64,000 nucleotides of DNA from Alphaproteobacteria bacterium (GCA_045633945.1 JAZQZH010000003.1:250-64249), one strand, 5' to 3'. Positions 1-62,357 are shown, counted from the first letter of the stretch. Translations and numbers: made by a program. Notes: generated by a model not told the origin, from the letters alone.

Positions 1-1
1 A

Positions 2-157
2 GGAGCATATATAGGGCGCTTATCTGCAAATGGGGATGTACGTGGTTTAACTAATGGAAAAATAGGATATTTAAAAAGTAATGGTTCATATGTTAATACA
101 CGTAATAAAGTTTCAGGATATGTGATAGATGAAGTTGCACAAAATCGGAGGAAGTAA
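2..157 (+). CDS. 3' end of an upstream ORF truncated by the window edge; repeat protein of the same type as the N-terminal region of the following VirB10-like gene
   Basis: Frame starting at nt 2 reads GAYIGRLSANGDVRGLTNGKIGYLKSNGSYVNTRNKVSGYVIDEVAQNRRK, with stop TAA at 155-157. It shows the same 17-residue G-x-[ILV]...G-x-[IV] periodicity as the downstream repeats. It is absent from the ORF track because it has no start codon in the window. Confidence 0.55.
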   Translation, partial: GAYIGRLSANGDVRGLTNGKIGYLKSNGSYVNTRNKVSGYVIDEVAQNRRK

Positions 158-4427: not shown

Positions 4428-4453
4428 GGGTGTCAAAATATTAATTAAGGGGA

Positions 4454-5446
4454 TTGATAGTGAAAAACGAAGATAAAGTACTCTGTTCAATTTTAAGACC
4501 ACTTGCTTATTGGTATGAACAAGAAAATATTGAAGAGGTTGCTATCAATCAACCGGGGGAAATATGGTTGCGCTTAAGAGGAAAAAGAGCTTTTCCTTGG
4601 GTTTGTTATAAAGATCCTAAACTTACATGGGAATATTTAGAAAATTTGCTTTATATTATTGCAAACCTCAATGACCAAGAGTTTGATCCAATAAATGGAG
4701 TTCCTACAGTGTATACAGATATTCCAGGGGGGCACCGTTTTACAGGTGTAACAGGTCGAAATATCAGGTATGGTTTTGAAGATAAAGAAGGTATTGCTAT
4801 TTCTATACGTTTATATTCAGAAGACATCGCATTTGGATTTGGTGACTATGGTTTAGAGCAAGGAAAACAATTAAAAGATATAAATCCTCTTAAAAATATA
4901 AAAGATCCATCTGATGCATATGAACGGTTGCTACTCGCTCTACGAAGAGGGGATCACATATTAGTAAGCGGTGGTACAGGTACAGGTAAAACAACGTTTC
5001 TAAATAATTTATTACAACTGTTAGATATACATAAAAGAGTTGTAACTTTGGAGGATACAAGAGAGTTAAAAGTTCCTCATCCTAATCGTGTCCACATTGT
5101 TCTGTCTCGTGTTAAAGGCAGTAAAAATAAAGATACGGAAGGAATGAGTGATGCTGATGCTATAGACCTTATCAAACGTATTACCCCTGATGCTATTATA
5201 GGTGGTGAGATTTCAAATAAAAATGCTGCAGCAATTTGGGCTTTAATGGGTTCTGGTCATGATAACTGTATGGCGACCATACACGCAGAAAGTCCTGATG
5301 CTGCATATGAAGCATTTATTAAGTGTATAATGGAGCAATCACCTCATATAAATGTAGAGAAAACAATGCAAGAAATGCATCGTAAACTACATGTTGTGCA
5401 AATAGTTCGAGATGGTAATATTAGAGGTATAACAGCAATAACTTAA
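4454..5446 (+). CDS. virB11: VirB11-family type IV secretion ATPase
   Basis: Walker A motif VSGGTGTGKTTFLNNLL, followed by RVVTLEDTRELKVPHPN and IGGEISNKNAAAIWALMGSGHDNCMATIHA, typical of VirB11/traffic ATPases. TTG start is preceded by AAGGGGA. It sits directly downstream of virB10. Confidence 0.85.
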   Translation: MIVKNEDKVLCSILRPLAYWYEQENIEEVAINQPGEIWLRLRGKRAFPWVCYKDPKLTWEYLENLLYIIANLNDQEFDPINGVPTVYTDIPGGHRFTGVTGRNIRYGFEDKEGIAISIRLYSEDIAFGFGDYGLEQGKQLKDINPLKNIKDPSDAYERLLLALRRGDHILVSGGTGTGKTTFLNNLLQLLDIHKRVVTLEDTRELKVPHPNRVHIVLSRVKGSKNKDTEGMSDADAIDLIKRITPDAIIGGEISNKNAAAIWALMGSGHDNCMATIHAESPDAAYEAFIKCIMEQSPHINVEKTMQEMHRKLHVVQIVRDGNIRGITAIT

Positions 5447-10254: not shown

Positions 10255-10255
10255 T

Positions 10256-37172: not shown

Positions 37173-37177
37173 TAAAG

Positions 37178-42800: not shown

Positions 42801-42968
42801 TTACTTTAATTTCTTTTCTACGAATTCTTCGTGTTTCTTAGATTTTTTATCATACTTTTTCATAACCAATTTCTCAGGATGAGTTCTTGGATTTTTTTCA
42901 GCAAGATAAAAAGTACCTGTACCAGCACTGCTCTCTAATTTCACTTTAACTTTAACTGCTTTTGCCAT
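42801..42968 (-). CDS. rpmG: 50S ribosomal protein L33 (below the ORF-track size cutoff)
   Basis: The reverse strand translates to MAKAVKVKVKLESSAGTGTFYLAEKNPRTHPEKLVMKKYDKKSKKHEEFVEKKLK (55 aa), the L33 pattern. Confidence 0.85.
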   Translation of the reverse strand: MAKAVKVKVKLESSAGTGTFYLAEKNPRTHPEKLVMKKYDKKSKKHEEFVEKKLK

Positions 42969-47191: not shown

Positions 47192-47221
47192 AAAAAAAGC
47201 ACCGTAAAAGGTGCTTTCTTT
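47192..47221. terminator. Bidirectional rho-independent terminator marking the downstream end of the minus-strand accessory block
   Basis: An A-run, then AGCACC, a GTAAAA loop and GGTGCT, then a T-rich tract. On the minus strand it is followed by UUUUUUU. Confidence 0.75.
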
Positions 47222-47939
47222 ATTTTAAAGCCGGAATATTTAATTGTGCGAAATGCCCTGGTTTTATTTTTACAGTTGCATAACGAAGATTGTCTGTTTC
47301 TATCATATATTCTTCACGTCCTGTAAGTTGAGCCGCTAGTTTATAAAAATCACGACCATTAAGCTCTTGTTTATACCAATTCATAAGATAAAAAACACAA
47401 GCTTGACTTTTATCTGTCAACCCACATCTAGGTCTTCCTGATGGTACATCTTCGTTTGCAACAACACCCTCTAAACCATGTTTTTCTACTTTACTAGATG
47501 AAAATACTGATTTTCCTATAAATAAACCAATAAGCAAACAAACGGCAGATACAGCAATAAATAGATTCTTTTTTACATAATCAGAATTTATAAAAGCAAT
47601 ATTATCAATAGGAGATAAATCATAATCAGGAGGCAGAGCTCCAACCTCATATGGAGGTCTTAAGTTTGCATCTGGAGTATCAACATCTTTAAGAGAAACT
47701 ATATAATTAGTTTTATTTTCTGATTTATCTTCATCAGCTTCTAATGATTGTTTTATAGATGTGGGTATCTCTTTTTGAGGAGCTTGAGGAATGTCAGAAA
47801 CCACTCTAACTTTAGGTCTTTTTATTTTTCTTAATTTAGGACGCGCCATATTTTGTTCATTAGATGTAGCAGCTGTATTTTTATCCTGAGAATTCTGTAA
47901 ATTCTCTTCAACAAAACTATCTAAAGAATTATTATCCAT
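47220..47939 (-). CDS. Bitopic membrane protein of unknown function (last gene of the secretin-like operon)
   Basis: A ~120-aa polar/Pro-rich N-terminus, a single TM LFIAVSAVCLLIGLFIGKSVF, and a ~90-aa C-terminal domain with two Cys. Confidence 0.5.
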   Translation of the reverse strand: MDNNSLDSFVEENLQNSQDKNTAATSNEQNMARPKLRKIKRPKVRVVSDIPQAPQKEIPTSIKQSLEADEDKSENKTNYIVSLKDVDTPDANLRPPYEVGALPPDYDLSPIDNIAFINSDYVKKNLFIAVSAVCLLIGLFIGKSVFSSSKVEKHGLEGVVANEDVPSGRPRCGLTDKSQACVFYLMNWYKQELNGRDFYKLAAQLTGREEYMIETDNLRYATVKIKPGHFAQLNIPALK

Positions 47940-47948
47940 AATATCTCC

Positions 47949-49238
47949 TTAAATTTTATTTTTTATTTTTTCATCTGTTTTCAACATTCTAACTAAACGA
48001 GGAACAATAAACACAATAGTTTCGGTTCCTTGCTGTGCCTCTCCAAAAATTTCACTAGGAAGCCCAATAATTAAAAAGTTCTCTCCTAATTGATTTCTAA
48101 CTTTAAATTTTGTTATTTCTCCATCAGTTGTATCTAAAGTTATTTCAGAGAATATTTTACGACTTTTTTCAATATTAGCCTTAGCCAAAATAGATAAAGG
48201 ATACTCCATGTCATTTATCTTTCCGCATCGACCAACATCAAAGCGTGAGAACCATTCAGTTGGAACAATAAAACGTCCTTCAGAAATTTCCTCGATAGTA
48301 GCATATTTGCTAACAAATTCTTTTAATTTTGCAATTGATATATCATTAGTAACAGTAAGCATTCTACCAATTACACCAGTTTGTGTAGTTGCGATACTAC
48401 CAAAGTCAAAATCTTTTAATAAATCATTCCAAACAATACCACAGGTTTCTTTTCCCTTAGCTCTAAAAATATTAACATCATACATAACCATAGTAGGATT
48501 ATTTTCAAAGTCTCTTACCAAACTTTTTATTTTATCAAATGTTTCTAGATTAGTCTCAAATGAAACAGAGTAATCTCGCCAGTTTGTAACCATATCTGTA
48601 ATACCTGCGCCTCGTAATACATCTAAAAATCCTAACATTAGAGTTCTAGAGCTTGGAATATACAAAGTAAAGCTAGCTCTTCTGCTTAAAATTAAAGAGT
48701 TCATCTTCTTATCATAGCGATAAAATAAATCTGATGATTTTGTTATTTTTTCAACAATATCTTTAAAGCTTCCTGATAAGTTTTTACCATATAACTTAGG
48801 GTATGGAGCATCTTTAGCAACTAATATAATGCCAGCTTCTTCTGTTAATTTTAATAACGCTTGTTCCGTAGGTATATTATCAAAAGTGAAATTTCTTACT
48901 TCAAACTCAGGTAGTGCATCATTAATATCATTTCTTTCAAATCTAAAAGAAACATTGTTATGAGGAAGAATTTGCACCATTTCTTGTGTTTTCCAATTTA
49001 CATTGCAACGAAGAGGGGTTTCCAAATCTAAATCATTTGCCCTAAATGTTGTTCTTAGCATATATGGATCTTGAGGAGGTAAAACAACAAAGTTATCAGC
49101 CTTAAAATTCATCTCAGCATTGTTAGTCAAAACAGTCTCATCGTAGTTGTTATATGCACTACATGCTACAACTGTAATTAGTGAAAATAATAAAAACAGA
49201 TGATTACGTTTTTTAAAAAATCTAGACATCTTCATCAC
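47949..49238 (-). CDS. Outer-membrane lipoprotein with secretin-like organisation (N0-like, N1-like and a short secretin core)
   Basis: Lipobox LITVVAC. The N0-like segment is FTFDNIPTEQALLKLTEEAGIILVAKD...LFYRYDKKMNSLILS. The secretin-core-like segment is MVMYDVNIFRAKGKETCGIVWNDL...FIVPTEWFSRFDVG...NFLIIGLPSEI...TETIVFIVPRLVR. Confidence 0.5.
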   Translation of the reverse strand: MMKMSRFFKKRNHLFLLFSLITVVACSAYNNYDETVLTNNAEMNFKADNFVVLPPQDPYMLRTTFRANDLDLETPLRCNVNWKTQEMVQILPHNNVSFRFERNDINDALPEFEVRNFTFDNIPTEQALLKLTEEAGIILVAKDAPYPKLYGKNLSGSFKDIVEKITKSSDLFYRYDKKMNSLILSRRASFTLYIPSSRTLMLGFLDVLRGAGITDMVTNWRDYSVSFETNLETFDKIKSLVRDFENNPTMVMYDVNIFRAKGKETCGIVWNDLLKDFDFGSIATTQTGVIGRMLTVTNDISIAKLKEFVSKYATIEEISEGRFIVPTEWFSRFDVGRCGKINDMEYPLSILAKANIEKSRKIFSEITLDTTDGEITKFKVRNQLGENFLIIGLPSEIFGEAQQGTETIVFIVPRLVRMLKTDEKIKNKI

Positions 49239-49239
49239 A

Positions 49240-49764
49240 TTATTCTTCCGTTTCTGTAAGTTTATTTTGTTCGCTCATAAGTTTTGCAACCACATCATCA
49301 ATACTTTGTCCAGCACCATTTGTTGGAGCATTAGACTGATTAATAAATCCGCTAAATGCGTCTTTCACCACACTCAAATCAGCATCTTTTTTAGCGCTCA
49401 TATCTACTGTAGAGTTTTTCTCTAATTCTTCTTTATATAATCTTAAATTCTCTTTTAGAGCAACAACTCCTCCTTTAATTTTCTTTTCAATATATGGATG
49501 TAAATCTTTATTAGAAATAATATAATTCCCAGTTTCGCATAACTCATCTAAAACATCAATAATATATGGATAAAAAGGATAGTCCTCAACTGCCATATTT
49601 CCTTTTCTTATACAACGAGCAGCAATTCTAGATACCGTACGATCATAATAGTCTCTAATTAGTACATAATTATCAATGTACCAAAGAGCTTCTTTGGTTA
49701 CTTTGATTACATTATTTTCCTCATTTACATTATTTTCTTCTGACATCTCATAACTCCCTTGCAA
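49240..49764 (-). CDS. Hypothetical cytoplasmic protein (174 aa)
   Basis: No signal peptide or TM. It is tightly packed in the operon, with a 1-nt gap to the next gene. Confidence 0.5.
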   Translation of the reverse strand: MQGSYEMSEENNVNEENNVIKVTKEALWYIDNYVLIRDYYDRTVSRIAARCIRKGNMAVEDYPFYPYIIDVLDELCETGNYIISNKDLHPYIEKKIKGGVVALKENLRLYKEELEKNSTVDMSAKKDADLSVVKDAFSGFINQSNAPTNGAGQSIDDVVAKLMSEQNKLTETEE

Positions 49765-49803
49765 TATAGACTAAAACAAACAACATTTTTTGTAAATATT
49801 TTA

Positions 49804-51819
49804 TTATTTTTTATTATCGTTATTGTTTTCTTCTAATTCTTCTTCAACATACTCCCATTCCCAATCTTGGTCTTCATTATCTTCTATCGGATTCCCATTT
49901 TCATCAACATATTCATACTCCCATTCTTCGTCTATTGCTTCTTGAACACTCGATTCTGTATTGAGTATATCTCCGCCTGCTTCATCTGTATCGTCTACAA
50001 CATACTCATATTCCCATTCATCACTATCTTCTTCTTCAGGAATATTCTCATCATCATTGTAATCATCCAAAGAAATAGGCTCATCAATAGATGATATGTC
50101 GATATTATCAGATGTTAGCGCTGCCCTAATTTTATCTAACTCTGCACTGTATAGACTTTGAGGTCTGCTTTGAGACGCTTTGTCAACATCATCATCTTCT
50201 TCTGATGGCTCAGAAAAAAGATTGTCTATAGTTTCATAGTTATCTTCTAAAACCTCACTCTCTTGAGAGTTCTCTAAATTAAATTCTTCTAAGGGTAATT
50301 TATCAAATTCAGCCTCAAAAGTTGGTGCCTCAAAAGTATCTAATTCGTCGCTTTCTGCACTAAAATTATCTAAAGATAATTCGCTAGATTCTGTCTCAAA
50401 AGTTGGTGCCTCAAAAGTATCTAATTCGTTACTTTCTGCACTAAAATCATCTAAAGATAATTCGCTAGATTCTTCCTCAGATGTGGATCGCTCAAAAGTA
50501 TTATCTTGTTCAGGCAAAACAAAGTCTAATCCATCATCAAAATCATCTTCGAAATCATTATCGAAGCTATCTACAAGAATATCGTTATTGGGTTTAATTT
50601 CGTCTTGAAAATCAACACGTTGTTCAAGTTTTTCTTGTAACTCTAGTGGTGGTTCATTTAAGTCGACATTATCAAATGTATCATTGTGTTTAAATGCTTC
50701 ATTTCTAATAATACCATTGATTCCTAACGCACTAGTTGATGAACTAAAGGTATTTAACTTCTGTTCAGTATTATTAATAGAGTTATTTTTATTTTTTTTC
50801 TTCTTCTTCTTTTTATGAGTAGAAAATTTATCGGATGTTTCACTATATACATTTACTGCTTGATTACTGTTTTCATCATCTTCTATATCATTTTTATCAT
50901 AATTTACTCGACTATAGTCCTGCTCAACCACAACATTAATTGGTTTGGTTTGTAGCGACATCAAAGTGTTAGTATAATCAGTAAACATTTCTTGAATTTT
51001 GCTCAAAGACTGCTCAAACTCAGTCCTCATTTCATTTTTAAATGCTTTTAATTTACTTTCAATATTCAAGTAATCAGATATTTCATTGTTCTTTTGAATG
51101 TTAGCAGAATATAGTCCTTCTAAAAGTTTGGTTATTGAAGTTTGAGAGGCGATAATTCTATTATTTAAATCCGCCGTGCCAATATTATCTTTTGTTCTTG
51201 ATGATAAAATACCTTCTAAAATTCTAGAAATAGAAACTTGTGATGCAATCACTGAATCTGTAATACTTTTTGTTTCGCGCAAAACATCCAATAACGATGC
51301 TCTAGATGTTCTAATCTCTTCTGCTATAACGTCAAAAGTATTACCAAAATCAAGAGTTGTGCTACCAGTTACACCCGCAGAAACAGTCGCTTGCATAGGG
51401 TTTTGCTTGAATGCAGAAGCCATGGAATTTGCAAGAGCTTCCGCAAAAGAGGCGTCAACAGTTATACTGCCCCCAACAATAGGAGTAATGGCTCCTCCAG
51501 TTGCTTGCGCTGGTTGAGAAGATTCTCCCATTCCACTTCCTTCTGCAAAGTCATCTTTATTTGATTTTACAAAAGATATACCGCGTTCTGTTTTAACTTC
51601 TTCAATATGTTCAACTAATAGTCTGCCACCAGGCATTCGTTTAAAGAAGTTTGTAATAACAGGAGGTAAAGCCAATAACTCGTCATCAAATTGATCACGT
51701 TTTGCTTTATTAAAAATGTGTACTTGTCTAAAAATATTCAAATAGCGTTGAGCCACCAAAATAGGGGCTTCTTCAGTACTTTTATTACTACCGAACTCTG
51801 CATCATTTAAATTTTCCAC
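49804..51819 (-). CDS. 671-aa highly acidic repeat protein (first gene of the secretin-like operon)
   Basis: GTG start. The N-terminal ~330 aa hold the internal repeat IASQ[VT]SI[ST][RK][IL]LEG[IL]. A K-run follows, then an acidic C-terminal half with 27-aa tandem repeats and three [DE]W-E-[YW]-E-Y-V motifs. Confidence 0.6.
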   Translation of the reverse strand: MENLNDAEFGSNKSTEEAPILVAQRYLNIFRQVHIFNKAKRDQFDDELLALPPVITNFFKRMPGGRLLVEHIEEVKTERGISFVKSNKDDFAEGSGMGESSQPAQATGGAITPIVGGSITVDASFAEALANSMASAFKQNPMQATVSAGVTGSTTLDFGNTFDVIAEEIRTSRASLLDVLRETKSITDSVIASQVSISRILEGILSSRTKDNIGTADLNNRIIASQTSITKLLEGLYSANIQKNNEISDYLNIESKLKAFKNEMRTEFEQSLSKIQEMFTDYTNTLMSLQTKPINVVVEQDYSRVNYDKNDIEDDENSNQAVNVYSETSDKFSTHKKKKKKKNKNNSINNTEQKLNTFSSSTSALGINGIIRNEAFKHNDTFDNVDLNEPPLELQEKLEQRVDFQDEIKPNNDILVDSFDNDFEDDFDDGLDFVLPEQDNTFERSTSEEESSELSLDDFSAESNELDTFEAPTFETESSELSLDNFSAESDELDTFEAPTFEAEFDKLPLEEFNLENSQESEVLEDNYETIDNLFSEPSEEDDDVDKASQSRPQSLYSAELDKIRAALTSDNIDISSIDEPISLDDYNDDENIPEEEDSDEWEYEYVVDDTDEAGGDILNTESSVQEAIDEEWEYEYVDENGNPIEDNEDQDWEWEYVEEELEENNNDNKK
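50314..50473 (-). repeat. Two tandem copies of an 81-bp (27-aa) unit, about 96% identical
   Basis: Nt 50314-50392 versus 50395-50473 differ at 3 positions. They encode SSELSLD[DN]FSAES[ND]ELDTFEAPTFE[TA]E. Confidence 0.85.
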
Positions 51820-51879: not shown

Positions 51880-52851
51880 TTATAATGCTATATCAACAAC
51901 CTTGTGAATTCTATTAAAGTCATCGTTATCAAAGTGGATTCTTTCATCAGGATTCCACATTAAACCGTACAATTTACCTTGCTCATCTTCTCTAACGCTA
52001 ACAACATAAGCTTCTTGCTCATTTCTGTAATAAAGAGCAATATCACCAACACTGGCAACCTCGGTTGGGTCAACAAACATGACAGCTCTATTAGATAAAA
52101 TAGAACCAAGTCTTCTTGTGCAAAGGTTAACACCATAAACATCTCTTTTTTCAAAAAGATTTGCAGGTTTTACAGCCTCTTTAGAATATGCCGATTTATC
52201 AATAATGATAGCGCCATCTGTTCCAGATAATCCAAATACTGGAACTTTCAAAGCTTCCATATCAACATAACTACTTTGTTCTGTAATCATTCTTGTCATG
52301 TTGTTAACTTTGTACTTAGTGTCATTATGTGTAATAATTTCTTCTAAAGCACCAGCTTCATCTAATCTTTTTATTTCAGATTTTAAAACATCAAGCTCCA
52401 TATTTAATGCGCGAGCAATGTTATTATATTCTTTATCAGATACCTCACGTTGTCCCATTTCTATACGATGATACACCGATAAAGTCATATCTGCACGCTC
52501 AGCAACTTCAATCAATGTTAAAGATTTATCATTTCTGATATATCTAAGAGCAGCTCCCAATACTTTTAGACCACTACTTTTGTTTATTTCTTGTCTACGT
52601 TCTTGTTCTTTTTTCCAAGCAAGAACAACTTCTTGTTGAGAATTCTGTTCGTTAACATATAAATCTTGTAAAGAACAATCCAAAATTTCTGCAACAGAAA
52701 TAAGTTGTTCTTGATTAAGGCGTCTATAACCTTTTTCTATCTTAGAAATTGCAGAAAGACTAATACTAAGTTTATCTGCTAAATCTTGCATTGAAACACC
52801 ACGCATTTTGCGGTTAATTCTAATTTGATTAGGAAATACAATTTCTTCCAT
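51880..52851 (-). CDS. Transcriptional regulator with two XRE-type HTH domains and a C-terminal LexA/CI (S24)-like domain
   Basis: HTH 1 is RKMRGVSMQDLADKLSISLSAISKIEKG and HTH 2 is IRNDKSLTLIEVAERADMTLSVYHRIEMG. The C-terminus VPVFGLSGTDGA...VGDIALYY...LMWNPDE is colinear with the LexA C-terminal domain. Confidence 0.7.
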   Translation of the reverse strand: MEEIVFPNQIRINRKMRGVSMQDLADKLSISLSAISKIEKGYRRLNQEQLISVAEILDCSLQDLYVNEQNSQQEVVLAWKKEQERRQEINKSSGLKVLGAALRYIRNDKSLTLIEVAERADMTLSVYHRIEMGQREVSDKEYNNIARALNMELDVLKSEIKRLDEAGALEEIITHNDTKYKVNNMTRMITEQSSYVDMEALKVPVFGLSGTDGAIIIDKSAYSKEAVKPANLFEKRDVYGVNLCTRRLGSILSNRAVMFVDPTEVASVGDIALYYRNEQEAYVVSVREDEQGKLYGLMWNPDERIHFDNDDFNRIHKVVDIAL

Positions 52852-53007
52852 AATATATCACCTCTATTTAAAAACAAACTTTATAATATAATAAGGTCGC
52901 TATACAAAAAGGCAAGTCAAAAAGATAAAAATTTTTTTAAATCTGTATAACTTTTGTCAATGTGATATTTTTTTTAAATTGTTATTTATAAACGCAATTA
53001 TTGTATT

Positions 53008-53038
53008 AAAAAAAAGGCTTAAATTTAAGCCTTTTTTG
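53008..53038. terminator. Bidirectional terminator downstream of the VirB6-like array
   Basis: AAAAAAAA, GGCTTAAATTTAAGCC, TTTTTT. Confidence 0.75.
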
Positions 53039-53128: not shown

Positions 53129-56100
53129 TTATCTAAGCTCTATGCCTTGTTCTTCTGCTAATTGCTGTGCTAATTCTGGATTTTCAATTTTAAGCTGTTG
53201 TAATAGATTCTTTTTACCTCTTTCTCTATTACGTTGAATATATTTGTCACTCATATGTCCATCATATGTTCCACTATCAATACGCTCAAAATACTCATTA
53301 GCCTCTTGACGGATTAATCTTTCTTTTTCTGTGTCAGAAATAGATTCATCTTTTCTAATGGCATTCATTACATTTGTAGTTGTATCAGTATCAAGGGCTC
53401 TTCGTTTTGATTGCATACTATTATGTACAGCTTCATCTATTCTTTGTTGTGCTTCCTCATTTTTAGCTGTGATAATAGCTCTACCACCACCATTACGTAC
53501 ATCAACATCATCCTCATGAGACATTGCATAACTTTCTATAGCATCTTGCTCAACTCCAGCAAAATCATATACCCCACCAGGATGTTGGCGTACAAGTTCA
53601 GCGGCAGCCCTAGCTTCTTCATAACTAAGATTACCATCTTTCAATTGTTGATTTGTTTCATAAACTTGGCTATTACTAGATGTGTCTACATCTATATTAT
53701 ATCTTTCCTCTCTTTCTTTGTCAAAATTATGCTCCTCTTTAGGCTCTTCTTCTCTAGGCTCCTCTTTAGGCTCTTCTTCTCTAGGCTCATCTTGAACTAT
53801 CGGAGTTTCTTGATTTTCCTCTGGTATAGTATCATCTTTATTATCTTCTTCCCTAGTATCTTCTTCTTCAACGATTGGAGTTTGAGAGTCATCATCTCCA
53901 TCATCGTTATCATCATTATCTTCTTCCTCTTCTTGGTCCTCTCTTTTATCCTCTCTTTCATCTTCGTCTTGGATAATTGGGATTTCTTCCTCAAATTCCT
54001 GTGTAGGATTCTCTTCTTGCTCATCCCAAGTGCAACTCATGATGTCATAGTCTAGAGAGGTTGAACCTCTTCTTGTTCCTTCTGCTAAAATTTTACTGCT
54101 TAAGATATCTTTTGAGTGTCCAGCTTGAACATTTGCAACATCTTCCAGTGCATCTATACCATATAATAGGCCATTTTTATGGAAGTCACTTCCAACTAGA
54201 TCAGAAGCAATTATACCATTTGCATCAACAACATCACCAATACTCGCTCTTCCTTCCATAACCCCGTCAGAATATTTAAAGTCAGTACCAGAAACACCCC
54301 ATCTACGGTAGCTGTTGATTTCTACGCTACCATTATCAAAATAAAGTCGTCTATCGTCTGTGGTACCATATCTGTTAGATATAATATGTTCATTATAGTA
54401 CGAAAGTATTGGCTGTCCATTAAATGGATTAATTTCCATAGATGCATTTATGATCTGACCATCAGAATTTACTTGTTTAATGAGAACTTTGTTTGGATTT
54501 TTAGGATCAATAATAACATCTCTAGATTTATAATTATCGCTAAATGTACATCCTCTCTTCTTAAGAGCATCTGTGGCTATCGCATCCATTATTTTTCCGC
54601 GATATTTTGGATCACGTGCAATGCTAGAATTTAGAACTTTGCGAGCAGCATCTCCATTTATTTTACCATTCTCATCAACAAAATCCTGCATTCTATATGT
54701 ATTTTCTAGCAAACTAGTACTTAATCTATTTGTTTTATTTCTAGCACCATTAGCTAAAATTTCTTTAACAACATATTCTTTAGCATCTAAACCAACAGGT
54801 ACTACACCTAAATCGCTGAGCGCATCCATACCAAACATAAGATCTTTTTCTTTAGCTCCACCTTGATTAGGATCCAAATCTTTAGCAATTTTACCATTGC
54901 TATCAACAATTTTTCCATCCTCTCGTTTATCAGAAAAATGACGATGATTCTTTTGTGCTTCTTCAGAATATTTATATGTAGTTACTTCTTCTCCATTAGA
55001 TTTTCTGCGTGTTGATATTTCAACCATACCATTGTTAATGTAAGATGATGCTTCACCATTTTTATGTTGTGTCATATGTGCAATAGAAGTACGTCCTGTT
55101 TTAGGATCAATTTCCATAGAAAATCTAGTAATTCTACCATTATGGTCAACCTGCTCAACCGTGATTTTATTAGGATTTTTAGGATCTGTTATAATTTTTC
55201 TAGAATTATAGTTTTTGCCTACTTTTATACCTTTCTTTTCTAGCGCCATGGTCGCAAATTTAGCCATCATCATTTCGCGATATTTAGGATTTTGAGCAAG
55301 CGGAGAATTCATAATATGATCCATTGCACCTTGGTTTATATTACCCTTTTCATCAAACATATGATCATTAACAAAGCTATGTCTAAATTTAACATCACTG
55401 CTAATAACATTTCCATTTTTATCTGTAACTTCTTTAATTGTAGAGTATCTATCATAAGTCGCAGAATGGGTTCTACCATTTATAGGGTTAGTCCAAGTAC
55501 GTTTAAGAAGCGTTTTACCAGTATTGGGATCAACATCTGTCTCAAAGCTTAAGTTACCAATTTTAATTCTTTTTCCACCACTGCCGTTGTCTTTACCAAA
55601 TGTATTTACAATTTTGCCCATACCAACTCTAGCAATATTTCTAGTACCATTTTTAGCTCCTCTATATACTGCCCCAGCGCCTTTTGCAGCAGCTGTACCC
55701 ATCTTATCTGCAAGTTTTCCAGAAACTTCATCCATTTTACTAGATATTGCCTGACCAATCTTAGCACCAGCAGCCATCCCAGAACCTCCAGCAAAGAACT
55801 TCGCTAGTTCAGAGACAATTGGCATATATGTCATTCCTAGAATAAGAACAAATATAAGCATGAACATATTTGGTCCCCAAAAAGCAAGACCTCTATTTCC
55901 ATCATAAAACACTTTACTCGCGCTAACATTAGAAGTCGCATTTATTAAAATACTCTCAATATATCCTAATATGCAATTGAGTAAAATCGCCATAAACATA
56001 AATACAAACAATGTATTAAGTATCCAATCCCATATTTTACTCAAATATCCTTTTGTACCATTGAAGGCATAACCACAAACAGCAAAGGGTAGTAATGTCA

Positions 56101-56920
56101 TTGCAATGCCTAATTGGAATACAGCATCAGCCATAACCCAAGGATATGTCATCATAAAGAATACGCCAGCAACGTATAATATTATACCGTCTACAATTGC
56201 AATAATACGAGGAATCAAGAATAATATTCTATCAGGTCCGGTACCACGACAAATTGCCCATTCACCATATTCAAATAAAAGGTTTATTTTGTTTTCGATA
56301 CTTTGTACACAACAAACAATCATCTTACCTACACTAATAGGTATTCCGCCTCGGCTTGAGCCGGAAAAAACATCACCAAAACCAATAATTCCACCAGAGT
56401 TAGAGCAGCTAACCATTGATTGAGGATCATTATTAGTTGAAATAAAACTCATAACTGTTTCAAATACAGGCACTAGTGTTAGTGTTAAAATTTCATAGTA
56501 GTTTTTTGTTATAATCATATATATAACAATAACTACAAACACTTTTCTTAAAATATCATTCATCATAGAGCCATAATCTTTAGCGCTCATTGATGCTAAT
56601 TGTTTTAATACCATTAAACTAAGAGAAACACCCAAAAAGACTAATAGAACCTCTGCTAAACTAGATGAAAATACATTATAAGCTCTTCCAGCCATTAAGC
56701 TTCCAGCATTAAAGATAGCCTTAAACATAGGGCAGAATAAGCAAAATGATTTATCTACATATGGGGTAGAGCAAGAGATGTCTGTATCAATACCCATGGC
56801 ATTAAGAGTGAGTTCGAATAAATCCATAAGCAAACCAGCATGAGCTATTGTTGGCATTATTAGCGCAAAGCAACCAATAATAATTGGCAAATACATTTTA
56901 TTTTTAATAAATTTCATCAT
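53129..56920 (-). CDS. virB6: VirB6/TrbL-like polytopic membrane protein with an ~830-aa soluble C-terminal extension (1263 aa)
   Basis: The N-terminal ~375 aa are colinear with the upstream paralogues: CLFCPMF, ASMSAKD, and the core motif VMADAVFQLGIAMTLLPFAVCGYAF. Downstream lie a duplicated ~215-aa module, an acidic region and a helical C-terminal domain. Confidence 0.7.
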   Translation of the reverse strand: MMKFIKNKMYLPIIIGCFALIMPTIAHAGLLMDLFELTLNAMGIDTDISCSTPYVDKSFCLFCPMFKAIFNAGSLMAGRAYNVFSSSLAEVLLVFLGVSLSLMVLKQLASMSAKDYGSMMNDILRKVFVVIVIYMIITKNYYEILTLTLVPVFETVMSFISTNNDPQSMVSCSNSGGIIGFGDVFSGSSRGGIPISVGKMIVCCVQSIENKINLLFEYGEWAICRGTGPDRILFLIPRIIAIVDGIILYVAGVFFMMTYPWVMADAVFQLGIAMTLLPFAVCGYAFNGTKGYLSKIWDWILNTLFVFMFMAILLNCILGYIESILINATSNVSASKVFYDGNRGLAFWGPNMFMLIFVLILGMTYMPIVSELAKFFAGGSGMAAGAKIGQAISSKMDEVSGKLADKMGTAAAKGAGAVYRGAKNGTRNIARVGMGKIVNTFGKDNGSGGKRIKIGNLSFETDVDPNTGKTLLKRTWTNPINGRTHSATYDRYSTIKEVTDKNGNVISSDVKFRHSFVNDHMFDEKGNINQGAMDHIMNSPLAQNPKYREMMMAKFATMALEKKGIKVGKNYNSRKIITDPKNPNKITVEQVDHNGRITRFSMEIDPKTGRTSIAHMTQHKNGEASSYINNGMVEISTRRKSNGEEVTTYKYSEEAQKNHRHFSDKREDGKIVDSNGKIAKDLDPNQGGAKEKDLMFGMDALSDLGVVPVGLDAKEYVVKEILANGARNKTNRLSTSLLENTYRMQDFVDENGKINGDAARKVLNSSIARDPKYRGKIMDAIATDALKKRGCTFSDNYKSRDVIIDPKNPNKVLIKQVNSDGQIINASMEINPFNGQPILSYYNEHIISNRYGTTDDRRLYFDNGSVEINSYRRWGVSGTDFKYSDGVMEGRASIGDVVDANGIIASDLVGSDFHKNGLLYGIDALEDVANVQAGHSKDILSSKILAEGTRRGSTSLDYDIMSCTWDEQEENPTQEFEEEIPIIQDEDEREDKREDQEEEEDNDDNDDGDDDSQTPIVEEEDTREEDNKDDTIPEENQETPIVQDEPREEEPKEEPREEEPKEEHNFDKEREERYNIDVDTSSNSQVYETNQQLKDGNLSYEEARAAAELVRQHPGGVYDFAGVEQDAIESYAMSHEDDVDVRNGGGRAIITAKNEEAQQRIDEAVHNSMQSKRRALDTDTTTNVMNAIRKDESISDTEKERLIRQEANEYFERIDSGTYDGHMSDKYIQRNRERGKKNLLQQLKIENPELAQQLAEEQGIELR
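53731..53784 (-). repeat. Perfect 27-bp tandem duplication encoding PREEEPKEE x2 in the acidic linker
   Basis: GCTCCTCTTTAGGCTCTTCTTCTCTAG occurs twice back to back, at 53731-53757 and 53758-53784. Confidence 0.85.
54041..55363 (-). repeat. Internal duplication of a ~215-aa module within the VirB6-like extension (protein-level similarity)
   Basis: Module A (aa ~520-740) reads DEKGNINQGAMDHIMNSPLAQNPKYREMMMAKFATMALEKKG...IITDPKNPNKITVEQV...GMDALSDLG. Module B (aa ~745-960) reads DENGKINGDAARKVLNSSIARDPKYRGKIMDAIATDALKKRG...VIIDPKNPNKVLIKQV...GIDALEDVA. Confidence 0.75.
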
Positions 56921-57888
56921 TATTTGCCTCCCTCCGGTTTTTTGGTTTTAGCCATACTTTTACCCATATTATAAGCTATTCTTTGTAGAGCATTACCATC
57001 TTTATTCCCCATTTTCTGAAGTTTCTTGCCAGCCTGATGTTTCGCTACGTCTTTAGCATATTTTGTTGCTTTACCTATTGTTTTTTTCTTCAAATCGCCA
57101 AGTGCTTTTGTGAGTTTTTCATTTAAAGGATTACCAGCAAGAGCAGAACCAAAGAAGTGTCCACAAAATTCTACGGCTAACAAAGGAATCACCTTAAATG
57201 CTACAATATAGCTCAAAAGAACTTTTAAGAAAGATAAAGTAAATAGAGATAATTTATCTTCTATCAAATCTGATCTATCATTAGCAAAGGCATCTTCAAG
57301 AACTTTTGCACCACCAAATACATCTGCAAGTACAGAAATAACAATACTATTAGCAATCAATATACCCAAAGGCAAAAAGATAAATACACCAACATAGTAA
57401 ACTATACTACTAAGAATCTTTTTCAGCTTGTCTTTAGTCCAACCAAATGGCCACAGAGCAATACCTAGGGGGAGTAAACAGATTCCAAGTGATAAATTAA
57501 ATGCAATATCAAATAAATAAAATGCAGAAGCTAGCGATACTAAAAATCCAACAATAATTAATAATACTGATGCAAACCATAAACCCAAATGTATAATACG
57601 TTCACTAAACACAGTCATACCCAATACTTCATAAGTCCAGTCTGCAGCTTTTCCATGCAAAGAACTACAAAATAGCATATCACCAAACTTTAGCATTTGA
57701 GAAGAGGCAGTGTTTATACTTTTTGCTAAATCATATATTGTATCAGAAAGTTTCTGCATAGAACTTCCACCAGATAGTGCGCCATATTCTATTCTAGGTG
57801 TTTCTATAGCCGCATGTGTCTCAATAGGGCTAAATAGAATGCCAAGACAAAAAACAAATATAAAACTAAAATATCTCATCTCCAGCAC
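56920..57888 (-). CDS. VirB6/TrbL-like protein corresponding to the central and C-terminal part only (322 aa) with its own signal peptide
   Basis: Core motif YLFDIAFNLSLGICLLPLGIALWPFGWTKD and a basic K/A-rich tail. The likely start is ATG 57879 (MRYFSFIFVFCLGILFSPIETHAA) after GGAG; the track start is GTG 57888. Confidence 0.6.
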   Translation of the reverse strand: MLEMRYFSFIFVFCLGILFSPIETHAAIETPRIEYGALSGGSSMQKLSDTIYDLAKSINTASSQMLKFGDMLFCSSLHGKAADWTYEVLGMTVFSERIIHLGLWFASVLLIIVGFLVSLASAFYLFDIAFNLSLGICLLPLGIALWPFGWTKDKLKKILSSIVYYVGVFIFLPLGILIANSIVISVLADVFGGAKVLEDAFANDRSDLIEDKLSLFTLSFLKVLLSYIVAFKVIPLLAVEFCGHFFGSALAGNPLNEKLTKALGDLKKKTIGKATKYAKDVAKHQAGKKLQKMGNKDGNALQRIAYNMGKSMAKTKKPEGGK

Positions 57889-57890
57889 TC

Positions 57891-58415
57891 CTATAGTATA
57901 TTCGCATTTTGATTAAACCCAATGCCGATTGAATATCCAATATCAAGCAAAGGTGCTACAACAAATTCTACGATTGTGTCGATTCCTGTATAGATTAAAA
58001 CATAGCACAACGCCCACTTGAAAAAGAAAGTAAGAAGCGTATCCATTGTTTTAGATGTATCTTGTGCTGTAAAAGAACCAAAGCTTTTAATAAAGAATGC
58101 AGCAACCCAAATAGCACCAAAATATAATAGAGCAGTTAAACTCACCTCTCTTAATGCAACATATATATCTTCAACTGTTTTAGTCATACTTTGCATTAAG
58201 CTTAAAACTACATTACAAGACCAGCAATCTGCTTCTTCATATTTTCTTCTAAATATTTCTGCAGAGCAATATGCCAAATATTCTCTATCAGCTCCTGCAA
58301 GAGATGTTTTTGCAAAAAGTATTGTTGCACAACCTAACACTCCACTAAATAATTTATTAGGGAGCATTTTTATAATAAGCAAATTCTGCTTTATTTTATT
58401 CATCATCGTCATCAT
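57891..58415 (-). CDS. Membrane protein matching only the N-terminal module of the VirB6-like paralogues (174 aa)
   Basis: DCWSCNVVLSLMQ...TALLYFGAIWVAAFFIKSFGSFTAQD... is colinear with NCLLCILFDTL...TLYATAILIVFNSLKLMGSFGKLD of the 445-aa paralogue. Confidence 0.5.
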   Translation of the reverse strand: MMTMMNKIKQNLLIIKMLPNKLFSGVLGCATILFAKTSLAGADREYLAYCSAEIFRRKYEEADCWSCNVVLSLMQSMTKTVEDIYVALREVSLTALLYFGAIWVAAFFIKSFGSFTAQDTSKTMDTLLTFFFKWALCYVLIYTGIDTIVEFVVAPLLDIGYSIGIGFNQNANIL

Positions 58416-59700
58416 TGTTATACCCCGCTAATTTATTTAGTTTTTCACTAATATTAGATTTAACCTGCTTAATTGTATCCATTTTATCTCTGAAAAATTC
58501 ATATTTTTCTAAAGCTTCGGTTAAACTTTCAGTTGCTTCATCAGTTAAAGCATTTAACGCTGTTGCAGCAATCTTCTTAGCTACTCTCATTACAAACTTT
58601 GATATTTTCTTTTCAAAGTCTAATCCTTGACCGCCTCCAATAAATTTATTAGCAAGCGTAACACCCAGCCCAGGTATGTTTAGTAATAATAATGATATTA
58701 AGAACATCGCCATAAGTGACGGACCAACACCATTTAAATCTCCTTTACCCATATTTTGCATGCCATTAATAATGTGTTGTAATGAGCCAACTGCAAGTGC
58801 TACAAGCAGACCTATAAAGAACATTATTCCAGATGAGTTAATAAACATTTCATAGCAGTATTTTACCCATTTTCTTGTAAATTTGAATGGAATTCCCATC
58901 ATCATCAACGGAATAAGAATAACCGCAAAATTTAATCTAAATAAAGAGTCTACAAGATATAGCACAAAACCGAACTTAGCACAAGTAAAGAACAAAAGGA
59001 TAGAAATACCTACAAGAGATGAAGCAAAACCACTACCTAAAAGAGCAATACCAATTCTAATACCCGAACCTAATCTTGAACTGATTAAACAAACAATGCA
59101 GTTTGTCATAGGCATTATTCCAGCTTTTATATTTGTCATTTGAGTAAATGTGCTTTCACACTGAATATTTGGGCTAGAAAATGTTATATTACCAAGCCAT
59201 CCTAATTTTGCAGTAAGAGTGAAATTTATTGGTTCAAGAATGCGTGAAGTTAACTCCAAAAATGTTTGATAAATAGGTATAACAAATGTTTCAATACCCC
59301 ATCTAATATCGCCAATTGAGCTAACCATCCATGCACAAAAAGCACACAAGAATAATTGTTGACCAATTTCAGTCCATACTTCGCCTAAGCTCTCAGCTTT
59401 AAATGAGGGCATTATTTTTATCATCTTAAATGCCATCCAAACAGCAAAACCCATCATAATTACAGTTGGACCACCATCAACCACTTTTTGCGCAGAAGAA
59501 ACAAATAATTGATCAATTATTTTAAGTACCGCTGATACAATATATGTTTGCCAACAGTCTGTCTGTTTGTTAGCATTTTCACCACTACCGGCCCCCGGAT
59601 TCTCTTTACCGCAAGCGCACAAAACAAGTATAATAGCAAACAAGGCAACCTTACTAAGTACATTAAAAGAGAGATATTTTTTCCAATTTATTTTTAACAT
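58396..59700 (-). CDS. virB6: VirB6/TrbL-like polytopic membrane protein (434 aa)
   Basis: Signal/lipobox-like LVLCACG, then MPSFKAES and the core motif YLVDSLFRLNFAVILIPLMMMGIPFKFTRK. Multiple TMs. Confidence 0.7.
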   Translation of the reverse strand: MLKINWKKYLSFNVLSKVALFAIILVLCACGKENPGAGSGENANKQTDCWQTYIVSAVLKIIDQLFVSSAQKVVDGGPTVIMMGFAVWMAFKMIKIMPSFKAESLGEVWTEIGQQLFLCAFCAWMVSSIGDIRWGIETFVIPIYQTFLELTSRILEPINFTLTAKLGWLGNITFSSPNIQCESTFTQMTNIKAGIMPMTNCIVCLISSRLGSGIRIGIALLGSGFASSLVGISILLFFTCAKFGFVLYLVDSLFRLNFAVILIPLMMMGIPFKFTRKWVKYCYEMFINSSGIMFFIGLLVALAVGSLQHIINGMQNMGKGDLNGVGPSLMAMFLISLLLLNIPGLGVTLANKFIGGGQGLDFEKKISKFVMRVAKKIAATALNALTDEATESLTEALEKYEFFRDKMDTIKQVKSNISEKLNKLAGYNNDDDDE

Positions 59701-59715
59701 ATCAAGTCCCCCCTT

Positions 59716-61053
59716 TTAATTTCGCCACCAAGCTTTATAACCTTGACTGCCGGTTCCTGTTAAGACACCTCTTACAGTTGTCATTTTTTCTTTTGCAAAC
59801 TTACCAGCTTTATCTAAGCGTGTAATTCGAGCCAGTGCATGTCCACCTTCTTTAGCAACTTTTTTAGCCACATGTTTAACAGGAGCCGAAGCAGCTTTAG
59901 CAAGAGGTTTAGTTGCTTCAGCTCCAGTTTTAGAGCCGGCACTAGAAACAGGGGATACACCGGAAATATTGCTTACAAGCGGTTTTAAGTTATCCAATAC
60001 TTTAGCAAGCAAAGCAAAACAAACAATTGTTAACAATAAAGAACCAGAACTCCATAATCTTTCTGATGCAGCATCTATATTATTTCTATCAAGTAGTTTT
60101 CTAATATTACCGCCAAAAGAATTTGAAGCGACAACACCATTTTCATCAGCCTCACCCAAGCATAATAACATTAATTGAATAGAAAGGCCTAATAGTACTC
60201 CAAGCATAACAAATCCAAAGAATACACCTATGAATTTTTCCCATATCTTTTTACCATGACCACTTGTTTTATCAGATATCATAAAGGCAATACCTAAAGG
60301 TAAAAGCATTGCAGCAAATGCTAAATCAAACATTAAATCTATAATATAAAAGCAAGTAGCTACAAGAAGTGACCATCCAAATACAAAGAAAATAATACCA
60401 TAGCAAAGCATTAGCCATTTCCAAAATAATATAAAGTCATCAGTAGCGTTGCACATCATTGCTTTTCCAATAGCAACAACATTATATAACTCATCATTAT
60501 ACGCTCTAGCTCCTTCGTTTACCAAACTAAACAAAGCAGGCCATCCACTACCGCTAAAACTCCAGTTGAATTTTACATTTCCAGCTATTAGGCTTTGTCC
60601 AATCACTAATCCAGAGTGCATAATCGGTATAAGTATTGAGTTTATTATAAACAAATCTTTATCTGTTAACAACAAATAGATTACAGCCATTTTAAATCCT
60701 AAAAATAGCATGCCTTTTTTATCTGCAGTTAGATATGTTGGTACATCAAGTTTACCAAAAGATCCCATAAGTTTTAAGCTGTTAAACACAATTAAAATTG
60801 CTGTTGCATATAATGTAACCATAGCAAGAGGTTTTGCAAACATATTCCACGTTCTTGTAGCAGCATCAGAAGAGGCTTCTGTTAAAGTATCAAATAAAAT
60901 ACATAATAAACAATTTTTTCCAATGCCATCATTTAAATATCCTTGGAAAGTATCACATCCGCCACAAGCATTGAGAAACAGAACTAAGAATAGAGATATA
61001 AAGAGTTTTTTAGCTCTTTTTATCTTTTCATAAATGTTGCTAAAAATAATCAT
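59716..61053 (-). CDS. virB6: VirB6/TrbL-like polytopic membrane protein (445 aa)
   Basis: LFLNACGGC, then CLLCILF and GSFGKLD. The core YIIDLMFDLAFAAMLLPLGIAFMISDKT is colinear with A. tumefaciens VirB6 (YDAVGILTKVLLAIGPLILVGYIFDRT), recalled from memory. Confidence 0.72.
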   Translation of the reverse strand: MIIFSNIYEKIKRAKKLFISLFLVLFLNACGGCDTFQGYLNDGIGKNCLLCILFDTLTEASSDAATRTWNMFAKPLAMVTLYATAILIVFNSLKLMGSFGKLDVPTYLTADKKGMLFLGFKMAVIYLLLTDKDLFIINSILIPIMHSGLVIGQSLIAGNVKFNWSFSGSGWPALFSLVNEGARAYNDELYNVVAIGKAMMCNATDDFILFWKWLMLCYGIIFFVFGWSLLVATCFYIIDLMFDLAFAAMLLPLGIAFMISDKTSGHGKKIWEKFIGVFFGFVMLGVLLGLSIQLMLLCLGEADENGVVASNSFGGNIRKLLDRNNIDAASERLWSSGSLLLTIVCFALLAKVLDNLKPLVSNISGVSPVSSAGSKTGAEATKPLAKAASAPVKHVAKKVAKEGGHALARITRLDKAGKFAKEKMTTVRGVLTGTGSQGYKAWWRN

Positions 61054-61064
61054 ATCAACTCTCC

Positions 61065-62357
61065 CTAATCCTTAATCCTGAAGAAATTCTTCACGCTTTG
61101 TCTAAAAGCAAGTTTGGCATCATCATATTTATCAGCTGCATTTTCTAATGCTTTTCCTAATCTAGTTTTCTTAAAGTCATCTTTAGCTGTTTTGGCAACA
61201 CCTTTTGCAAGGTGTTGCCCAACTGTTTTAGCAGGTTGAGCCACAGCTTTCATTGCTTCAGCCCCCATTTTTTGTCCCGTTTTACCAACAGAACCAGATT
61301 GTCCCGAAATTCCATCAACAGTTGCTTCAATCTCTGTAAATACTCTAAAAATTAACATACAGCATAGAGATGTTAATATAAATCCTTTAGGTGATAAGTT
61401 ATTAACTAAACGGTCAACTTGTGGTATTGTTAGAACAGCATTACCCGTTAGATATTTCATAGTGTCACCATTGCCTCCGATAGCTTTTTCTAACATTCTA
61501 ATAGAAAGATTCATAGCAAGTCCTAACACAATAAAGTTAAAGCTTACATTGACAAATAGAGCCCATGCTTTACCCGTGTATTCAACCGTAAATTTAGACG
61601 CCATACACGCAATAGCCATTGGTAATAAGATACAACCAACAGCGAGTCTAAATAAAACATCTAATAAATAAAATGCAATGCCTATACAAATTAACCATCC
61701 CATAATGTATACAACAAAACCAAAAGGTAATAAGCTCCAATACGTATCAAAAAAACTATCTGGTAAAAAGGCTAAACAAACAAGTTCACGCCCCATAGCA
61801 ACAATCGTATAGCTAGATTCGTTGAAGTCTTGTATCTTCTTTACAACGCCTGTTAACAAACTTCTAACATTAGTAGCATCACTAAAATCAGCACTCATTG
61901 CAGTTGGTGAAAAAGCAGTACCCATATTCATAGATGTTGCAATAACCGGTGAAATTACATTTTGATATATAAATGTGTTTCCATCATTAGTCAAAAGTAT
62001 CATAATAAAAGCCATTTTGGCCATAAGTGGAATAACACCTTTCTTTTCGTTAGAAAGATAAGCAAAAGTATCTTGTCCAGAGAAGGAACTGATATTTTTT
62101 AAAGTATAAACTGCTATATATATAGACGAACCAATAGCTATAACTACTTGAAGAGGTAATGCAAATACACGCCATGAAGTCTCAGCAACAGAAGAACAAG
62201 CATCTACAATGGTTCTAAAAACAGGCAATAAAATGAAGTTTTCACCAACACCATCATTAATATAGTCACCTAACGTAGGACAGCTAGCACTAGCAGGAAA
62301 TACTACGAATAGTATGAAAAACAATATATATGTAATGCATGATTTGATTTTATTCAT
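61065..62357 (-). CDS. virB6: VirB6/TrbL-like polytopic membrane protein (430 aa)
   Basis: Signal peptide, then SSFSGQD and the core YLLDVLFRLAVGCILLPMAIACMASKFT. It has a K/A-rich tail and is a clear paralogue of the 445-aa protein. Confidence 0.72.
   Translation of the reverse strand: MNKIKSCITYILFFILFVVFPASASCPTLGDYINDGVGENFILLPVFRTIVDACSSVAETSWRVFALPLQVVIAIGSSIYIAVYTLKNISSFSGQDTFAYLSNEKKGVIPLMAKMAFIMILLTNDGNTFIYQNVISPVIATSMNMGTAFSPTAMSADFSDATNVRSLLTGVVKKIQDFNESSYTIVAMGRELVCLAFLPDSFFDTYWSLLPFGFVVYIMGWLICIGIAFYLLDVLFRLAVGCILLPMAIACMASKFTVEYTGKAWALFVNVSFNFIVLGLAMNLSIRMLEKAIGGNGDTMKYLTGNAVLTIPQVDRLVNNLSPKGFILTSLCCMLIFRVFTEIEATVDGISGQSGSVGKTGQKMGAEAMKAVAQPAKTVGQHLAKGVAKTAKDDFKKTRLGKALENAADKYDDAKLAFRQSVKNFFRIKD

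Follow-up and report, generated by a model that had tools for sequence, protein, structure and literature searches.

Organization of the module

We analyzed 64,000 nucleotides (nt) of DNA from Alphaproteobacteria bacterium (GCA_045633945.1, JAZQZH010000003.1:250-64249), referred to below as the window, and concentrate on positions 47,192 to 51,819, where a compact gene module encodes a divergent secretin and three partner proteins next to genes of a type IV secretion system (T4SS). All four open reading frames (ORFs) lie co-directionally on the minus strand and are designated A to D in order of transcription. Protein A (51819..49804) is 671 amino acids (aa) long and has a GTG start, protein B (49764..49240; 174 aa) has a TTG start, protein C (49238..47949; 429 aa, GTG start) is the divergent, compact lipoprotein secretin, and protein D (47939..47220; 239 aa, ATG start) is a bitopic inner-membrane protein. 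The gaps between them are 39, 1 and 9 nt. On the same strand, a hairpin with a 12-bp stem and a T-run (47221..47192), resembling an intrinsic terminator, closes the module; it is bidirectional and common to the module and a convergent tatA-like gene.

The four ORFs, their sizes and spacing, and the strong terminator behind the last gene agree with a preliminary description of this DNA, made by a model from the sequence alone. That description had also spoken of a four-gene operon, and here it fell one gene short. The conserved unit comprises five genes, XRE-A-B-C-D, since a gene for an XRE-family regulator (52851..51880, minus strand, 323 aa) with a conserved promoter precedes the four, and a palindromic hairpin with A- and T-run flanks (53010..53037), recognized by terminator scan and from the sequence, parts the XRE gene from the VirB6-like operon upstream. 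Only 60 nt, with no terminator, separate the XRE gene from A. Compared with the closest relative at species level (L002, 92% identical), the ratios of nonsynonymous to synonymous substitution rates (dN/dS) were 0.15, 0.13, 0.05 and 0.24 for A, B, C and D, respectively, indicating that all four ORFs are real genes under purifying selection; the ratio for the XRE gene was 0.02. We found no description of the module, or of the secretion genes of this lineage, in the literature.

Protein C is a divergent lipoprotein secretin

Protein C had no match among the sequence models of Pfam, NCBIfam or the PDB, and its identification draws on three independent lines that agree, namely its fold, a sequence continuum and a profile-profile comparison. 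The AlphaFold (AF2) model of the C monomer had a predicted local distance difference test score (pLDDT) of 69.7 overall and of 80-90 over residues 100-260, while residues 22-78 were modeled with low confidence (pLDDT <50). Searched with Foldseek, this model matched 34 solved chains at E<=0.001, all of them secretins or secretin N-domains. BfpB was the best match (9u5s_A, E 3.9e-11), followed by PilQ (2.1e-10), and further matches included InvG, GspD, XcpQ and RcpA (8odn_A, E 9.1e-5), as well as the N-domains of XcpQ, GspD and EscC (ranks 36-49). The phage secretin f1 pIV matched weakly (E 2.9e-4), pilus secretins far better.

The second line comes from an exhaustive profile search started from C, which collected 196 cluster representatives whose members grade from orthologues into canonical secretins. 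At the canonical end of this continuum stand proteins of 436-845 aa with Pfam Secretin, STN and sometimes TcpQ domains, although the STN hits among the relatives of C were weak. The top NCBIfam scores of these canonical relatives, which were below threshold, fell on the MshL and PilN (type IVb) models, and the best solved match of the canonical bridging family was again BfpB (E 7e-32). Finally, hhalign aligned the C family profile with 28 canonical PF00263 secretins at 99.8% probability (E 2.8e-30) over residues 97-423, a span that takes in both the N0-like and N3-like domains and the pore domain in full.

With a pore domain homologous to PF00263 and N0/N3-type periplasmic domains ahead of it, C is a genuine, very divergent secretin of the lipoprotein type IVb-pilus branch (BfpB/PilN-like). 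Secretins are gated outer-membrane channels of 12-15 subunits that resist heat and sodium dodecyl sulfate, and C presumably forms a pore-forming multimer in the outer membrane. The earlier suggestion of a secretin-like lipoprotein is thereby borne out by the fold search, by the profile comparison and by an invariant lipobox cysteine: the lipobox reads VVAC, Cys26 is invariant in 54 homologues, and Ser occupies position +2. In the canonical relatives the lipobox Cys is near-invariant too. Several far orthologues of C carry an ordinary signal peptide in place of the lipobox.

Two further features mark the family. The N-terminal segment at about residues 55-97 is very conserved and contains an invariant 'RC' motif, and the pore domain (about residues 249-423) is some 75 residues shorter than that of the canonical relatives. 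Three deletions account for the shortening, and on our reading of the alignment they probably lie in hairpin loops between conserved strands. Among high-GC relatives of termite-gut type (P0179, P0183; L062/L063), the secretin was found without the N0-like domain, retained the 'RC' segment and had gained a Pro-rich C-terminal tail.

Its closest known counterparts are lipoprotein secretins as well, namely BfpB of the bundle-forming pilus of enteropathogenic Escherichia coli, TcpC, PilN of plasmid R64 and MshL-like proteins. C shares with the BfpB kind the order of N0-like, N3-like and secretin domains. It differs in its shortened pore and in escaping the secretin models of Pfam and NCBIfam, as well as in its surroundings: no BfpG/TcpQ-like partner, ATPase, platform or prepilin peptidase is encoded beside it, and none of A, B and D is related to a known pilus protein. 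RcpA of the Tad pilus is a compact secretin like C, but its match was weaker than those of BfpB or PilQ, and the module has no TadD-like pilotin and no cpa/tad genes nearby. The preliminary description had cited DotD of the type IVB (Dot/Icm) systems as a partial precedent, and DotD, a T4SS-associated lipoprotein whose domain resembles the N0 of secretins, is similar to C in these respects. However, DotD (about 160 aa) consists of N0 only and has no pore domain, whereas C has a complete, if compact, one; DotD was not among the structural matches of the C model, and the precedent does not apply.

Proteins A, B and D

Protein A is strongly acidic (pI 4.05, with 157 Asp and Glu residues) and has neither a signal peptide nor a transmembrane segment. 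Its gene contains an 81-nt tandem repeat present in 2.4 copies (50307-50501). Conservation is confined to the ~70 N-terminal residues, a poly-Lys tract (about 332-345) and acidic repeats of the WEYEY/WEWEY type. The acidic tail is variable, and in the deep lineage L060 such a tail sits on B instead. Searches of Pfam, NCBIfam and the PDB returned no relatives of A, although its N-domain is recognizable in L060, L064, L067 and L069, and the protein is present in every module.

Protein B likewise has no signal peptide and no transmembrane or hydrophobic segment, and it had no family match in Pfam or NCBIfam and no match in the PDB. It consists of a conserved domain of ~90 aa (W28...G99) and a PTxGAG motif. 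B-homologous domains occur in longer proteins of L060 (501 aa), L064 (405 aa), L069 (365 aa) and L063 (234 aa). Elsewhere, B gains a basic C-terminal tail (RKVVKIKRP, RKLSFSLKRPKP) or a long acidic insert.

Protein D has a single transmembrane helix at about residues 119-146. Its cytoplasmic N-terminal tail carries a conserved basic motif, RPKLRKIKRP, at residues 33-42 (window 47814-47843), and its periplasmic domain of ~90 aa has two invariant cysteines, Cys172 and Cys181. Its C-terminal domain retains 37-45% identity in the deep lineages L060, L063, L064 and L069. Neither the family libraries and PDB sequences nor a Foldseek search with the low-confidence AF2 model (pLDDT 61) gave a significant match to D, and a resemblance to PilO, PilP or GspC, which the preliminary description had proposed to look for, did not emerge at the structural level. 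The best Foldseek match was the LysM-type protein CEBiP, at an insignificant E of 0.77. Since Pfam LysM also matched no member of the D family, a LysM-like peptidoglycan anchor is only a weak lead for D. Two other candidates were set aside: comparison of D with the ORF that follows the secretin gene on a Rhodoferax plasmid revealed no relationship, and D did not, by eye, resemble the TcpQ tails of two canonical relatives of C.

A short basic motif, in the variants RPKLKKVKRP, RKVVKIKRP and RKLSFSLKRPKP, thus marks the N-terminus of D, and the B proteins of other lineages (L035, L054, L058 and L059, and also L064 and L069) carry it C-terminally. Like the conserved poly-Lys tract of A, these motifs may serve to dock onto the acidic WEWEY repeats or onto some other partner. 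Given their small conserved domains with interchangeable charged tails, A and B fit cytoplasmic adaptors rather than secreted cargo.

This bears on a proposal of the preliminary description, that the four genes form a self-contained export device for the acidic protein A. The leading position of A and its presence in every module would suit an exported substrate. However, A lacks a signal peptide and a transmembrane segment, no inner-membrane translocase or energy source is encoded in the module, and a protein conserved only over its first ~70 residues, with a variable tail that has moved to B in L060, is better explained as an adaptor. We regard self-contained export of A as very improbable.

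The XRE regulator and its promoter

The XRE protein has two HTH_3 domains (Pfam E 1.6e-23, two stretches) and a C-terminal domain, and it matches repressor families of the PHROGs database, including over residues 91-321. Close relatives share 77-95% identity with it, the deep lineages L060, L064 and L069 41-43%. The conserved promoter region of the module (52888..52960, minus strand) contains the box TTGACAAAAGTTATACAGATTT at 52960..52939, downstream of which follow TTGACT, a spacer of ~18 nt and TATTAT (about 52915..52888); the promoter scan gave hits at 52960 and 52915. This element, with its TTGACAAAAGTTATACA box, is nearly identical in about 30 close-clade species, whereas the flanking DNA varies. 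The box occurs once in the window, against 0 occurrences expected, and from its uniqueness there is no visible sequence evidence in the window for an operator common to the module and the T4SS operons. At the same promoter position, distant clades keep inverted repeats (TGCACAAAA-N10-TTTTGTGCA and TAGACAA-N15-TTGTCTA), which suggests that the XRE protein regulates its own operon.

T4SS genes in the window

Directly upstream of the module and on the same strand lies an array of polytopic VirB6/TrbL-like genes (53129..62357, minus strand), identified by Pfam TrbL matches and by their polytopic sequences. It encodes proteins of 430, 445, 434, 174, 322 and 1263 aa, and TrbL matched five of nine VirB6 paralogues and orthologues, with a best E of 5.8e-7. 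At the other end of the window, Pfam identified VirB10 (1432 aa) and VirB11 (330 aa), encoded on the plus strand at 129..5446. VirB10 has a normal TrbI domain (Pfam E 9.8e-29) and Bflower_2 repeats (E 1.5e-40), and VirB11 matches T2SSE (E 1.5e-23). Proteins A to D had no match to VirB families in Pfam or NCBIfam, and the structure of C matched only secretins.

Several features of these genes are unusual. The VirB10 proteins are giant (1432-1521 aa; window 129-4427, L057 96-6048), with many beta-flower (lectin-like) repeats ahead of TrbI. The window starts 128 nt before virB10, inside another repeat-protein ORF, with the region beyond lying outside it; the protein encoded by this gene (window 1-154) has the same repeats and is not a recognizable VirB9, and the gene overlaps the start of virB10 by ~26 nt. 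The last VirB6-like protein (1263 aa; 53129-56920) has a long hydrophilic C-terminal half with duplicated segments of ~300 aa, and its acidic, repeat-rich tail (tandem repeats at 53727-53793) recalls the extended VirB6 paralogues of Rickettsiales. Region 62614-63901, upstream of the array, encodes a predicted lipoprotein of 152 aa (LLSAC) and a protein of 291 aa. Neither had a Pfam match, and a search of PDB sequences with the lipoprotein was negative too; this small lipoprotein may represent a VirB7-like component. Searches for exact copies of the VirB10 and EngB of the window found none, and a metagenome scan with VirB10 gave no relative.

Distribution and gene neighborhood

Homologues of C were found only in uncultured Alphaproteobacteria, the close clades of which come from human, ruminant and other gut samples. 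The metagenome-assembled genomes (MAGs) bearing C include 'Acetobacter sp. 46_36', 'Azospirillum sp. 51_20' and 'uncultured Rickettsiales bacterium UMGS1453', and all named database copies of C are labeled 'hypothetical protein'. We take the module-bearing MAGs to belong to the GTDB order RF32. No plasmid homologue of C was found.

Gene neighborhoods were compared across 58 species-representative loci (L numbers), 44 of them with at least 8 kb of upstream sequence. The order VirB6-like array, XRE, A, B, C, D was observed in 42 of these 44 species. On its other side, the module is flanked by tatA, nagZ, SPOR, xth and S41 genes in 32 of 33 close-clade loci, versus none of the 17 distant-clade loci. 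The layout with the VirB6 array is kept even in the deep lineages L060 and L064/L065, whose C proteins are only 23-27% identical and whose XRE proteins are 43% identical; DnaA identity, measured for L060 only, is 45%. In the remaining two species, L053 and L057, the XRE gene is absent and A-B-C-D directly follows virB10-virB11 in the same direction, in the order beta-flower repeat protein, VirB10, VirB11, A-B-C-D. The L057 proteins are orthologues of those in the window, with 35% identity over the full length of VirB10 and 64% for VirB11 (a 322-aa ORF in L057). With the module found beside T4SS genes in two arrangements, inheritance alone is hard to invoke.

More than 40 species carry the module at a common chromosomal site, and the purifying selection on it is strong. 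The genes XRE-A-B-C-D form a unit that is old, selected and physically linked to T4SS genes, and the connection is stronger than the preliminary description could tell from the VirB6-like neighbors in one genome. In the most divergent copy (L067), D is replaced by an unrelated bitopic protein with a zinc ribbon, and B is seemingly fused to C (574 aa).

Pilin-like genes and other content of the window

Every ORF of at least 120 aa in the window was compared with protein families (six had no family match), and the window was also scanned for prepilin motifs and, by tblastn, for pilins. No genes for pili, a type II secretion system (T2SS), a type III secretion system (T3SS) or phages were found in these 64 kb. 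The preliminary description had likewise noted a secretin operon with no such partners, which is correct for the window and fails for some of its relatives. In these, we identified type IV pilin-like ORFs of ~200 aa with a class-III signal, G|RSM[IV]EMLGVLAI[IV]G, and C-terminal cysteines. The start of such an ORF is 101 nt past the end of D in L057 and 225 nt past it in the close-clade species L010, and a third ORF lies 5 kb from the module, beside xerD, in L026/L071. In L071, which is syntenic with the window, this pilin-like gene (10001-10606) is located between rpmG and xerD. The lineage has type IV pilin-like genes that are able to share the operon of the module. In addition, L067 encodes three consecutive large ORFs (1-3413, minus strand; 460, 434 and 476 aa) with prepilin-like N-termini (G, E at +5 and a hydrophobic helix), 4-8 kb from its copy of the module.

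Among the canonical relatives of C, the best plasmid homologue is encoded by the conjugative, MPF_T-type plasmid NC_007901 of Rhodoferax ferrireducens. Its secretin gene directly adjoins those for a T2SS/type IV pilus ATPase, a GspF-family protein and pilin-like ORFs.

The window has a G+C content of about 31% and contains the origin-region genes yidC, rnpA, dnaN and dnaA, as well as about 30 kb of housekeeping genes, among them fpg, mfd, recG, ptsI, prfA, truA, dnaX, recR and xerD. A small signal recognition particle RNA (37079-37173; Rfam RF00169, 58.8 bits) is encoded upstream of dnaX, and no tRNA genes were found in the 64 kb.

A candidate pilus-type portal coupled to a T4SS

We tentatively favor the reading that the module is a pared-down portal of the type IVb-pilus type, genetically coupled to a Rickettsiales-type (rvh-like) T4SS and serving a pilin fiber; we put its probability at about 0.45, a little short of even odds. 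A portal is preferred to a replacement for VirB9 because L057 and L010 have pilin-like genes right behind the module and because the nearest canonical secretins are of type IVb. The module would be the remnant or the core of a type IV-filament portal, derived from 'thin-pilus' clusters that travel with conjugative T4SSs. In such an arrangement, C would form the outer-membrane pore and D an inner-membrane tether, whose disulfide-bonded periplasmic domain would contact the conserved N-terminal segment or the N0 domain of C. The basic cytoplasmic motif of D could be held by A and/or B, as PilM holds the N-terminus of PilN, with A and B serving as cytoplasmic adaptors, while the XRE protein would control the operon from the conserved promoter. 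C might then let a type IV pilin-based fiber through the outer membrane in support of T4SS-mediated contact. The ATPase, platform and prepilin peptidase would be encoded elsewhere in the genome or, more speculatively, be supplied by T4SS components such as VirB11.

Known systems offer partial parallels. The thin pilus of the IncI1 plasmid R64 (with PilN as its secretin) is a contact pilus supporting a T4SS, and both R64 and the Rhodoferax plasmid combine a type IVb-type secretin with a T4SS, as is the case here. They are the best precedent for indirect service of a secretin to a T4SS, via a contact pilus. Their clusters, however, are plasmid-borne and complete, with ATPase, GspF-like platform and pilins beside the secretin, whereas the T4SS here is chromosomal, split and rvh-like, with an array of VirB6 paralogues, and motor genes are not in sight. 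Another parallel is PilMNOP-PilQ of type IVa pili, where cytoplasmic protein(s), a bitopic protein with an N-terminal motif and a secretin are likewise encoded in one operon apart from the motor. The two sets of proteins are similar in neither sequence nor fold, their genes differ in number and order, and C is a lipoprotein of the type IVb kind.

A number of observations weigh against the favored reading. Adjacency is not function, and with its shortened pore domain C could have ceased to conduct a fiber. A, B and D showed no detectable similarity to PilM/N/O/P, GspC/L/M, BfpG or TcpQ. The link to the T4SS is not seen everywhere: on the 7.5-kb contig L069, tsaB and rimI lie upstream and no T4SS neighbor was seen, and L067 has no VirB6 array within 8 kb. 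None of the T4SS genes in the window has a further copy of the promoter box upstream of it. VirB11 excepted, no PilB/GspE-type ATPase, and no GspF/PilC platform or prepilin peptidase, was found in its 64 kb, nor were these motor parts found in some 70 related loci, up to 21 kb in length, that were scanned by tblastn with the Rhodoferax ATPase and GspF and by Pfam annotation. Pilin adjacency is sporadic, with two loci directly after D and one nearby, and no pilin gene was found within the 64 kb of the window genome. Apart from rpmG (42801-42968) and 53 nt of spacer, the slot corresponding to the pilin-like gene of L071 (42748-43051) is empty, so that this copy is missing there.

Two other explanations appear doubtful to a similar degree. 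In the first, which the preliminary description had put forward, C itself is a structural part of the T4SS, an outer-membrane conduit that replaces or supplements VirB7/VirB9 without any pilin fiber. The module does adjoin T4SS genes in two different arrangements, the gene directly 5' of virB10 encodes, in both the window and L057, a beta-flower repeat protein in which no VirB9 is recognizable, and no filament motor was seen nearby. Nevertheless, to our knowledge secretins always serve T2SSs, T3SSs, type IV or Tad pili, or filamentous phages, and no known T4SS uses one. The idea is further weakened by the pilin-like genes that follow the module in two relatives and by the type IVb kinship of C, whose nearest relatives are pilus secretins, and VirB10 keeps its normal TrbI domain.

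In the second, an ordinary type IV pilus, Tad or T2SS-like machine is encoded elsewhere and the module supplies its outer-membrane part, the place of the module beside T4SS genes being historical or regulatory only. Secretin genes often lie apart from the motor genes, as pilMNOPQ does from pilBCD, pilin-like genes exist in the lineage, L067 combines prepilin-like ORFs with the lack of a VirB6 array within 8 kb, and no operator common to the module and the T4SS genes was found in the window. On the other hand, type IVb clusters are normally compact, with the secretin beside the ATPase and the platform, as in the Rhodoferax relative, and the operon partners of C are not PilMNOP-like. Moreover, the T4SS adjacency persists at a DnaA identity of 45% while the other flank changes, and in L053 and L057 it has arisen anew, with a different T4SS operon.

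Less probable still, though more daring, is a chimeric machine, in which a type IVb secretin with A, B, D and a pilin has been captured by the rvh-like T4SS and, having no PilB/PilC motor, would be docked to or powered by T4SS parts (VirB11, the VirB6 paralogues). Least likely of all the readings, and hardly credible, is descent from a filamentous phage, or from some other mobile element with a pIV-like secretin and a CI-like repressor, of which the module would be a remnant: the XRE protein does resemble phage repressors and pIV-type secretins do match the C model weakly, but A to D yielded only two weak PHROGs matches, to families of unassigned function (E 1.6e-4 and 0.0097), no Zot-like ATPase or coat genes accompany them, the module is fixed at one chromosomal position under purifying selection without a plasmid homologue, and bacterial pilus secretins match C far better than phage ones.

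Implications

The module adds a previously unannotated secretin family, together with three partners of new kinds and a dedicated regulator, that has been kept beside T4SS genes in deeply diverged and abundant Alphaproteobacteria of the gut and rumen. The C family provides a profile for finding such secretins and a compact secretin, with a pore domain of about 175 residues, for structural work, while A, B and D represent three new protein families that are candidate secretin partners. If the chimeric machine were true, it would be the first secretin-bearing T4SS, or the first case of a type IV pilin fiber assembled by a T4SS. If the coupling between the module and the T4SS is functional, it would show how these uncultured bacteria build their apparatus for contact and secretion, and that a different secretion system can put a pilus portal to new use in stripped-down form.

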